Source: Stylophora pistillata
Taxonomy: Eukaryota
NCBI RefSeq assembly: GCF_002571385.2
Contig: NW_019217787.1
Span: 567,791 to 631,790, forward strand
DNA: 64,000 nt
Direction: 5' to 3'
Shown: one piece after another, positions 19,801 to 22,272 of the stretch
Layout: each line of letters begins with the position of its first letter
How positions within the stretch are numbered: the first letter of the stretch is position 1
Program-made: the position numbers and the translations under genes
Notes under the pieces: generated by a model
What the model was told of the DNA's origin: nothing
Database searches by the model: none
What the model saw: the letters and a program-made list of their open reading frames with translations, nothing else

Positions 19801-22272
19801 CACCTAGGGATCCATGATAAATCTAAAAACCAAAAACTTAATCAGAATTAAGCCTGGAACATTTTATGCAAATATTTGAACTTCAGTCTACAACAACCTT
19901 TTTATTGTGATTTGTACCCAAAACCATATTATTTTGATTGGCTACAAGTCTGCAGATAATTCTAACCGGTGCTGTTTTCAAGAGTTCTGATAGAGTGCAT
20001 AGGTGCAGAGCCACAATTACGAAGTTTGTGAATCATTATCCTCTGGCTCATAATTTACAAACTTGTTGCCTTCTCCCAATATTAGCATCAGTAAACAGAA
20101 AGGAAAAAAAAAAAACAGGCAATCACCCAACTATACACCTTACATTCAAATTGTACAAAAACCACTTGTGACGAAAAATGCCCGAAACTCATCATAACAA
20201 ATTTTGCACACTCAAAATTGTTTTTGCCATGGTAAATGGAGAAAGTTGAAAAGTTGGATTTAAGTCCTTCAACTATTCCAATAACCACCCAATAAACGAG
20301 GAGGTTACAATTAAGGCCACATCAAAATTGAAATCAATCGAGGAAGACTGGGCATATGTTCAAGTCTTGATGATTACAAACGGAATGCCGTAACATTATG
20401 CAAAGTATGTATGATACGCGATCCTTGCAGTAGAGAGCACTATTTATGCAATAGCGAAAATGGGACCTGAAAAAGATCAGGCCTGTACGGGATTCGAACC
20501 ACTGACCTCTGCGATACTAGTGCAACGCTCTATAGTATAGTACAACGCTCTAGTATAGCAGAGGTCAGTGGTTTGAATCCCGTACAGGCCTGATCTTTTT
20601 CAGGTCTGATTTTCACTATTGCATAAATAGTGCTCTCTACTGCGAGGATCGCGCATCATACATGTCTATAACCGCAGTTCAAAATATATGAACTTTATAT
20701 ATTCATTGTATTATGCAAAGTAGATAAAATGTGGATTATAAAAGGCATGAAACTCAATCGTAGCTGTGCTAATAAGCGGGGTGGCTAACCAACGGTGAAT
20801 AGGGCTCACAGCGTTATACGGTACACCCCTTACTGCACAGGGAACCCAGACAAGTGAAGAGTCTGGTTGTTTATTCAAAATATAAAGGAATGTATGGGAG
20901 AATATTGAAGAGTCTTATTATCGTAAACTTATATCATGAAATGTCCAAGTTAAAGCTCAAAATAAATGTAAACCTACCTCACTTGCTGTGTATTGTCGTT
21001 TCTGTGGCTCTAAACGGTGAATTTGCGCGATTTGGTGGGTTTTGCGTCAACTGTTACTATACGTTATAAGAAGGAGACAAAGGTGGAAAGCTCATTTTCG
21101 ACCACTCTAGCGCAAAGCTGATTTTCACTCAGAAATAAGAATCGTGTGGCCTCCAAATCGAAAACCAGATAAACTGAAAGGTTGACGCTTCTTCTCGTCG
21201 CATTCAATCAAAGATCCATTCAAAATCCAAGCGCTAACCACCAAAAAATTTTCGAGAAATGCAGCTTTCAAAGAGATCAGCATCCGTGGCCCTGATTTCG
21301 TGTGCCAAGGAGCAACTGTCATGCTGATTGGATGATGCTAAACAATGCCCGATTACAAATGCCTCATGTGGGAGGGGAGTCATTGGCATATTCGCACCAG
21401 CGATTCATCTACTGACTGGCCTGGTGTGAGGTTTATGTCGTGTGACGGAAACCCGTCACGACCTCAACCCTCTGTTAATATGCCCCTGACTCCCCAATTT
21501 TTGCAGTTAGTGCTTGGATTTTGAATGGATCTTCAATTGAATGCGACAAGAAGATGCGTCAACCTTTCAGTTTATCTGGTTTTCGATTTGGAAGCCAGGC
21601 GATTCTTATTTCTGGGTGAAAATCGGCTTTGCGCTAGAGTGGTCGAAAATGAGCTTTCCACCTTTGTCTCCTTCTTATAACGTATAGTAATAGTTGACGC
21701 AAAACCCACCAAATCGCTCAAATTCGCCATTTAGAGCCACAGAAACAACAATACACAGCAAGTGAGGTAGGTTTACATTTATTTTGAGCTTTAACTCAGA
21801 CATTTCATGATATAAGTTTGTGATAATAAGACTCTTCAATATTCTCCCATACATTCCTTTATATTCCGAATAAACAACCAGACTCGTCGCTTGTCTGGGC
21901 TCCCTGTGCTTACTGTAGACTGCAAAACCAATGATATTGAAATATGGAGGCAATCCATCGTTAGACTCGTGGACAACAGAAATTTCAGCTAGCAATGAGT
22001 AATTTTTTTAATCAATTTCTTCAAATAAGATTTCAAAAAGAGTTTTCCCTAAACTCTTTCTCATTTTACTAGAAAATTTGTAAACTCTTGATCACTAGAT
22101 CCCTTGAACCACTAGGAGCCGATTCACGATGCAACCAGGCCGCGCTCACATTTCATGACTTTGGTTTGTCAATTACGACTAGGGAATGGACCTACAAATA
22201 TAATTACATTACCTGGGGTGTTCTCCTTGCCAAACTTCTCGTTAAAATGGACGTGAGTCGAGAAGAAAGCAT
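13801..22272 (-). CDS. ATP5F1A: Mitochondrial ATP synthase F1 subunit alpha, 552 aa, 11 exons
   Basis: Exons 22272-22213, 19822-19744, 19534-19365, 18676-18336, 17563-17499, 16594-16511, 16239-16088, 15704-15537, 14965-14801, 14306-14162, 14030-13801 (1659 nt, in frame). Transit peptide [36 protein letters not shown]-loop [47 protein letters not shown]. Confidence 0.97.
16961..17483. mobile_element. Tc1/pogo-type MITE in an ATP5F1A intron
   Basis: TA|ccgtaaaaatctggagataagc ... gcttatctgctggtttttacag|TA: imperfect TIRs with TA TSD; internal ataagccgcagccacaa repeats. Confidence 0.6.
17701..18134. mobile_element. Composite palindromic non-autonomous element
   Basis: ~145-bp imperfect palindrome (tggtaattgaac...gttcaattacca, 17705-17847) fused to a module bounded by a perfect 22-bp IR, tttattacatccattttgaaat (17849-17870) / 18113-18134. 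Confidence 0.6.
20408..20709. mobile_element. tRNA-derived SINE inserted as an inverted partial copy plus a direct copy, with 13-bp TSD
   Basis: B-box GGTTCGAATCCC-like motif on both strands (minus ~20488-20500, plus ~20570-20581). Arms 20408-~20520 and ~20550-20663. TSD attatgcaaagta at 20395-20407 and 20710-20722. Confidence 0.75.
20836..21908. mobile_element. Long-TIR foldback non-autonomous DNA transposon (~415-bp arms, 7-bp TSD; P/Galileo-like)
   Basis: Termini CACAGGG...CCCTGTG. Arms ~20836-21250 and ~21496-21908 are near-identical inverted copies (mirror ORFs 20854+ and 21675-). TSD CTTACTG at 20829-20835 and 21909-21915. Confidence 0.8.

Follow-up and report, generated by a model that had tools for sequence, protein, structure and literature searches.

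A non-coding, tRNA-bearing repeat unit of Stylophora pistillata and its likely mobilisation by a Penelope-like element

A locus in the genome of the coral Stylophora pistillata, at positions 20395..20722 of the 64,000-nucleotide stretch of DNA that was analysed (here called the window), is a two-armed insertion of a non-coding, tRNA-bearing repeat unit, and the scars left by the family of this unit indicate that it is very likely (with a probability of about 0.85) mobilised by a Penelope-like element (PLE). The arms stand back to back and end at two fixed points. Because this is a Penelope-like signature, the unit likely borrows the enzyme of a PLE and not that of a LINE. The partner would probably be a young PLE family of the Poseidon type, the best candidate found.

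The insertion represents a very abundant 247-bp unit, present here as two arms with truncated 5' ends. As the first-pass annotation had described, one 13-bp target site duplication (TSD; 20395..20407 on the left and 20710..20722 on the right, neither assigned a strand) encloses an inverted partial copy and a direct copy. The inverted arm (20408..20532, minus strand, unit positions ~19-146) stops at a short, tail-less fixed site, and the direct arm (20549..20709, plus strand, unit positions ~32-191) stops at a long one. The 46-nt tail that separates these two 3' ends (20664..20709, plus strand) is thus present in one arm only, in agreement with the earlier observation that the inverted arm lacks the last ~45 nt. 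Inverted complementarity between 20407-20534 and 20536-20663 extends over 128 nt at 90%. The junction between the arms (20533..20552, no strand) contains a 15-nt templated duplication, in which 20538-20552 repeats 20518-20532. B-box-like motifs lie at 20490-20500 in the inverted arm and at 20570-20580 in the direct arm, and two structures are predicted in the 3' domain of the direct arm, on the plus strand: a hairpin, H1 (20614..20632), and a 6-bp stem formed by 20639-20644 with 20673-20678 (20639..20678), with a GATC motif and the short end inside it. The description of the arms as headed by a tRNA has to be corrected. Both arms are truncated within the tRNA-like module, at unit positions ~19 and ~32, and consequently neither ARAGORN nor Rfam detects a tRNA in the window.

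Two variants are common to both arms, and among 112 distinct copies they occur together in only two, which are these two arms. The shared private variants show that the locus arose by a single insertion event; the possibility raised in the first-pass annotation, that the arms are independent insertions, is thereby set aside. (In a chance control for TSDs, a repeat of at least 12 bp was found in 1 of 1,806 mismatched flank pairs.)

When the genome is searched with the direct arm, head-to-tail arrays with a 247-bp period are recovered. The tandem unit is 245-251 bp long, and an exact 18-mer from it has 7,741 matches in the genome (reversed control, 0), a figure that exceeds the number of insertions, since arrays contribute several matches per insertion. 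Whole units contain a 73-nt cloverleaf that ARAGORN reads as tRNA-Thr(AGT) and that scores 48.9 bits with the Rfam tRNA model; together with the conservation profile, these results mark it as a tRNA-derived module with A and B boxes. Of 96 distinct tRNA heads, 59 have the anticodon AGT and 32 have GGT; in 73 of the 96 a run of at least six T follows the tRNA, upstream of the fixed 3' ends. Mispairs are present in the T stem of the young subfamily, which suggests that the A and B boxes are better kept than the tRNA fold. The tRNA is the sole real match when whole units are compared with Rfam at E values up to 10, and no hammerhead core (CUGANGA) is seen on either strand of two subfamilies. Folding of the whole unit gives a z-score of -4.9, and the isolated 3' domains give weak values of 0.66 to -2.07. 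A search for a true tRNA-Thr gene with a guessed, uninformative pattern returned no match. As to what the module does, action through its A and B boxes is the most likely of three putative roles, at slightly under an even chance; that it is a signal for RNase P/Z processing is considerably more doubtful, and that it is simply a passenger is a little less probable still.

Arrays extend to 11 or more units, and long arms run into further units. Arrays of one subfamily on different contigs are mostly 0-10 changes apart, and units inside one array are mostly identical; at one locus both arms carry 4-5 changes that are missing from sister arrays. Such common variants are compatible with one circular or uniform multimeric template, and also with assembly smoothing or a uniform source array. 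The family is present in RNA contigs from four runs of three studies, which speaks to presence in RNA libraries only, and the sequencing runs that contain it include ones labelled coral metagenome. Four runs aligned to the locus leave its flanks uncovered. Neither the 18-mer nor a 24-mer of the unit has a match in the viral or prokaryote collections. A diverged relative of the tRNA-bearing unit adjoins a Poseidon-type element in the DNA of another host (metagenome locus L365).

Insertion anatomy was surveyed in the loci of the first 100 pattern matches (contigs C1 and C2) together with the window locus, which gave 49 loci and 53 insertions; 10 of the 53 were left out because of N at an end, leaving 43 gap-free insertions. 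Inverted pairs with their 3' ends outward account for 29 of the 43, so the rarity of inverted duplicates that the first-pass annotation had named as counter-evidence is not observed. A TSD of 12-16 bp flanks 26 of the 29 pairs; a TSD is absent from 10 of the 14 direct-only insertions. The 3' ends of the arms fall at two sites ~45 nt apart in 74 of 83 cases (46 at unit positions 140-152 and 28 at 186-203), and older GGT copies have, by eye, the same two ends. The 5' ends are scattered: only 2 of 77 coincide with the start of the tRNA, and 48 of the 72 complete arms extend upstream of the tRNA into the preceding unit, a fraction that is biased upward because the 18-mer used for selection sits inside the tRNA and favours arms that reach it.

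The two PLE insertions of the window with which the first-pass annotation compared the locus do have the layout that it described. The locus at 44277-44828, an inverted pair of terminal repeats of a Poseidon-type PLE (44264..44841, plus strand), has a 13-bp TSD, 252-nt arms, a tail of ~29 nt and a hammerhead-core motif at 44696. The locus at 30223-30861, an inverted pair of terminal repeats of a Neptune-type PLE (30209..30875, plus strand), has a 14-bp TSD at 30209-30222 and 30862-30875 and a hammerhead-like core at 30316. (Two palindromic repeats, ~390 bp in all, at ~30466-30858, are nested in the tail of this insertion and separate its right TSD from the element.) The description of these loci as hammerhead-bearing holds for the core motifs; at the Rfam gathering threshold no hammerhead is found in them. 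At both loci the insertion derives from the end of an RT/GIY-YIG element. In the 44277 family, the terminal repeat belongs to an open reading frame with RT and GIY-YIG domains and without a cysteine linker (Pfam scores under the cut-off), and its Poseidon-type label follows the linker description given in PMC8557442. The 30223 family comes after a GIY-YIG domain, and its Neptune-type label is assigned without a tree. The Poseidon-type family is young in this genome, with 100% identity in every one of the 150 endonuclease (EN) matches that were scored, the best 150, and among the best 150 matches a search for more Poseidon families returned this one young family only.

In the collected loci, inverted pairs with a TSD of at least 11 bp were compared across the three families, with short-short and long-long pairs permitted. 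One short and one long end are found in 68 of 68 pairs (29 of the unit, 25 Poseidon-type and 14 Neptune-type). The mean TSD is 12.8 bp for the unit, 12.9 bp for the Poseidon-type family (p 0.52) and 13.6 bp for the Neptune-type family (p 0.011). At the second position past the TSD edge, a T is present in 41 of 58 half-sites of the unit and 34 of 50 of the Poseidon-type family (p 0.84), as against 9 of 28 of the Neptune-type family (unit vs Neptune-type, p 0.001) and a background of ~32%. In addition, 27 of 29 target sites of the unit score Poseidon over Neptune with a classifier that is modest (19/25 and 9/14 in leave-one-out), is built on small samples and separates Poseidon-type from Neptune-type only. 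The inverted fraction, TSD length and target preference for which the first-pass annotation had proposed a census are thereby measured in this sample, with target bases that match those of the Poseidon type. The target signature of the unit is indistinguishable from that of the Poseidon-type family and distinct from that of the Neptune-type family, the comparison being confined to these two PLE families. A second Neptune-type family has TSDs of 11-12 bp at 5 sites and no TSD in 4 further pairs. Across three PLE families (G000, loci L110-L136 and L446-L465) modal TSDs of 11, 12-13 and 14 bp and tails of ~90, 30 and 55 nt are observed; since the modal TSD differs among them, the stagger looks family-specific.

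Biochemical work provides a framework in which these scars can be read. A Poseidon protein is reported to nick and extend both strands, to prefer ATT and to begin reverse transcription at two sites inside the RNA, between which lies the tail, a feature called unique to PLEs (PMC11167929). The scars of the unit fit each of these reported points. In the process proposed here, the enzyme would nick both target strands 12-14 bp apart, and each 3'-OH would serve as the primer for reverse transcription from an internal site of the RNA, at unit position ~146 for one and ~192 for the other. Both cDNAs would then stop at random and be joined tail to tail, at 20395..20722 with a templated patch. That arms continue upstream through the tRNA and on into the preceding unit points to a template of multimeric or circular RNA. 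The earlier proposal of retrotransposition by a Penelope RT/GIY-YIG enzyme is supported by the PLE-type integration seen across the family, by the single event at the locus, by the absence of a match to LINE tails in 30 RT loci and by the origin of the two comparison loci from RT/GIY-YIG elements; mobilisation in trans by a PLE enzyme is inferred from the scars.

How the unit might capture such an enzyme is suggested by its 3' domain. In both the unit and the end of the Poseidon-type pseudo-LTR (pLTR), the predicted structure begins with a small hairpin, from which ~6 nt of spacer lead to a 6-bp stem around GATC and the short end; TCAAA follows. The stems of the two differ through paired changes. 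These pairs are kept in 92.8% of cells for the unit family and 96.4% for the Poseidon-type family, and two-sided changes occur in the first hairpin only; in H1 of the unit, 3 of 7 pairs are altered on both sides (17 copies). In 1.0 Mb of loci, all matches to a descriptor of the shared fold are either unit (60) or Poseidon-type (18) sequences, with 0 matches in three shuffles, and by a block score the unit ranks 2nd of 124,254 positions; descriptor and score were both devised with the two families already in view. Among 80 metagenome loci that have related ENs, 12 also match the descriptor; the pLTRs in this set of loci gave 30 short and 19 long ends. A covariance model built from 17 unit copies matches neither the Poseidon pLTR nor any other pLTR, and one built from 16 Poseidon pLTRs finds 4 unit domains in register at 7.8-11.9 bits, which is non-significant (E 0.95-8.9) and under the score of several Neptune-tail matches. 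Pairwise alignment of the unit with the Poseidon pLTR gives p values of 0.27 and 0.02, without correction for the 18 tests made. When 50 GIY-YIG loci are searched by blastn with the unit, separate insertions only and no pLTR homology are revealed. An RT search for further Poseidon families gave a few others, at 46-57% identity, whose pLTRs lack the fold by eye. Accordingly mixed is the outcome of comparing the tail with PLE and LINE ends, as the first-pass annotation had suggested: LINE tails are unmatched in the 30 RT loci, and on the pLTR side the fold is alike while models and alignments are weak or negative. On balance we favour the view that the hairpin and the 6-bp stem around GATC mimic the Poseidon pLTR end and may thereby recruit the enzyme, and we regard the likeness as a lead. 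A hairpin in Neptune-type tails (window 6435-6475; locus L244, 1770-1821) reaches 16-20 bits with the first hairpin in the model of the Poseidon pLTR, hinting at a motif common to PLE clades.

Other origins have to be weighed against mobilisation by a PLE. Ordinary SINEs use the enzyme of a LINE, and the whole tRNA-like module with its A and B boxes would suit a classical, LINE-dependent tRNA SINE, whose inverted copies would be products of twin priming or of a second insertion. LINE enzymes, too, can leave TSDs of 12-14 bp, which counts in favour of this origin. However, Pol III transcription that begins with the tRNA is expected to end at the T run found in 73 of the 96 heads, before the fixed 3' ends, and so the classical route does not fit. 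For this reason the earlier label of a Pol III SINE is, in its classical sense, not supported; in addition, the tRNA lies within a unit that is tandem or circularly permuted, and its start is ignored by the 5' ends of the arms. Moreover, the unit has two fixed 3' ends that are not simple repeats, whereas the 3' ends of the LINEs (top 30 of 150 scored RT loci) are simple repeats without inverted end duplication and are unrelated to the unit, so that the match to a LINE tail that the first-pass annotation had envisaged as counter-evidence does not appear. In those 30 loci the unit occurs only as separate insertions, one of which adjoins a LINE tail on the opposite strand, and a second insertion at 20395..20722 is excluded by the private variants of the arms. 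A LINE-dependent SINE is thus very unlikely, even with automated coral annotations that include SINE/tRNA-V families (PMC12005156).

The unit might instead be the solo pLTR of an undiscovered autonomous PLE with a tRNA in its terminal repeat. Solo pLTR pairs of the Poseidon-type and Neptune-type families do share the layout of the unit pairs, PLE open reading frames are often lost to assembly gaps, and the PLEs sampled were the best 150 candidates per search. Against this, no copy in the 49 position-chosen loci is attached to an open reading frame as its terminal repeat, and long arms lead into more units and not into coding sequence; we consider this origin improbable, if somewhat less so than a LINE-dependent one. 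The least probable is a DNA-level element, either a fold-back MITE or a Helitron-like rolling-circle repeat. A single locus does resemble a hairpin with a TSD, and the tandem arrays are near-identical, but the unequal arms, the freely varying centres, the scattered 5' ends and above all the asymmetry of the short and long ends largely refute it, and to our knowledge Helitrons produce no long TSD.

Mobilisation by a PLE places the unit next to several known systems. Like EN+ PLEs of the Penelope/Poseidon clade, it has an inverted, 5'-truncated arm, tandem copies, a tail of 30-45 nt between two fixed ends and an AT-rich target with T past the nick (PMC11167929, PMC8557442); unlike them, it has no open reading frame and no hammerhead, it carries a tRNA-like module, and no significant homology to a pLTR sequence was found. 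Metazoan non-LTR retrozymes likewise have a non-coding tandem unit of ~250 bp, are abundant in corals, have long TSDs and are proposed to depend on PLEs, but are defined by a type I hammerhead, which the unit lacks (PMC7229834; bioRxiv 10.64898/2026.07.22.740005). In size and TSD the unit (245-251 bp, 12-16 bp) falls within the retrozyme definition of a 150-450-bp tandem unit with a long TSD. (A hammerhead tandem repeat of 244-245 bp, retrozyme-like, is seen at 340-1330 of locus L106, beside a (TA)n tract and a PLE end.) Chlamys MRC1 and similar non-autonomous elements are also non-coding dependants of PLEs, with pLTRs and head-to-tail copies (PMC8557442). The Helenus/TRIMp3 elements resemble the unit in having a tRNA-derived module, often Thr, in a non-autonomous element that is not a SINE and that inflates tRNA gene counts; they differ in being of the LTR type and LTR-retrotransposon-dependent, with a PBS, a PPT and a TSD of 4-5 bp (PMC10886601). 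With its TSD of 12-16 bp, its inverted arms and its lack of an internal segment, the unit is not a TRIMp3. The SINE-like hammerhead repeats of Schistosoma are tandem and are thought to be transcribed by Pol III from a promoter located away from the 5' end of the mobile RNA, and they contain a hammerhead, unlike the unit; the portions of PMC6765202 that describe them name no PLE mobiliser. The closest known systems are non-LTR retrozymes, Chlamys MRC1 and Helenus; the unit works like either of the first two but lacks a hammerhead. No tRNA-bearing dependant of a PLE was found in the CC-licensed PMC literature and bioRxiv, the scope of the search; an entry for the unit may exist in Repbase or Dfam, which, like subscription journals and supplements, lie outside it.

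If the PLE origin is true, the concept of a SINE would be widened to a tRNA-bearing element that uses a Penelope enzyme. For the mechanism of PLEs, which is poorly understood, the unit would offer a natural substrate of 250 nt together with scars in the thousands; these bear on the pairing of one short with one long start per event, on a stagger of 12-14 bp, on a nick preference that differs by family and on a candidate fold for RNA recognition. More tentatively, and with somewhat less than an even chance of being right as a whole, the unit may represent a third route for parasites derived from small RNAs, the Penelope counterpart of SINEs (LINE) and TRIMp3 (LTR), in which a circular or multimeric RNA has exchanged its hammerhead for a tRNA module, the enzyme is captured through a mimic, in structure only, of the site where Poseidon reverse transcription starts, and thousands of apparent coral tRNA-Thr genes are passengers of PLEs. 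Coral tRNA-Thr and SINE counts may be inflated by the unit. Two coral annotations contain more than 20,000 'tRNA' repeats (PMC12005156), which would be relevant in so far as they belong to this family.

Several other features of the window were noted. An element of ~1.07 kb (20835-21909) has terminal inverted repeats of 412 bp (93%) and is bounded by a direct repeat of 7 bp; its termini resemble those of non-autonomous P-type elements. On the plus strand, 24030-25166 contains an open frame of 378 aa with glutamine amidotransferase and His_biosynth domains, predicted to be a fused imidazole-glycerol-phosphate synthase type; some corals synthesise histidine. A cluster of long open reading frames lies at 564-4139, one of them with an internal duplication of 380 bp; two were scanned and have no Pfam match, and our impression is that the cluster is possibly a Polinton- or virus-like insertion. 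Finally, a tandem array of ~40-bp units with an internal inversion (51389-53560) abuts a Neptune-type pLTR fragment at 53557.
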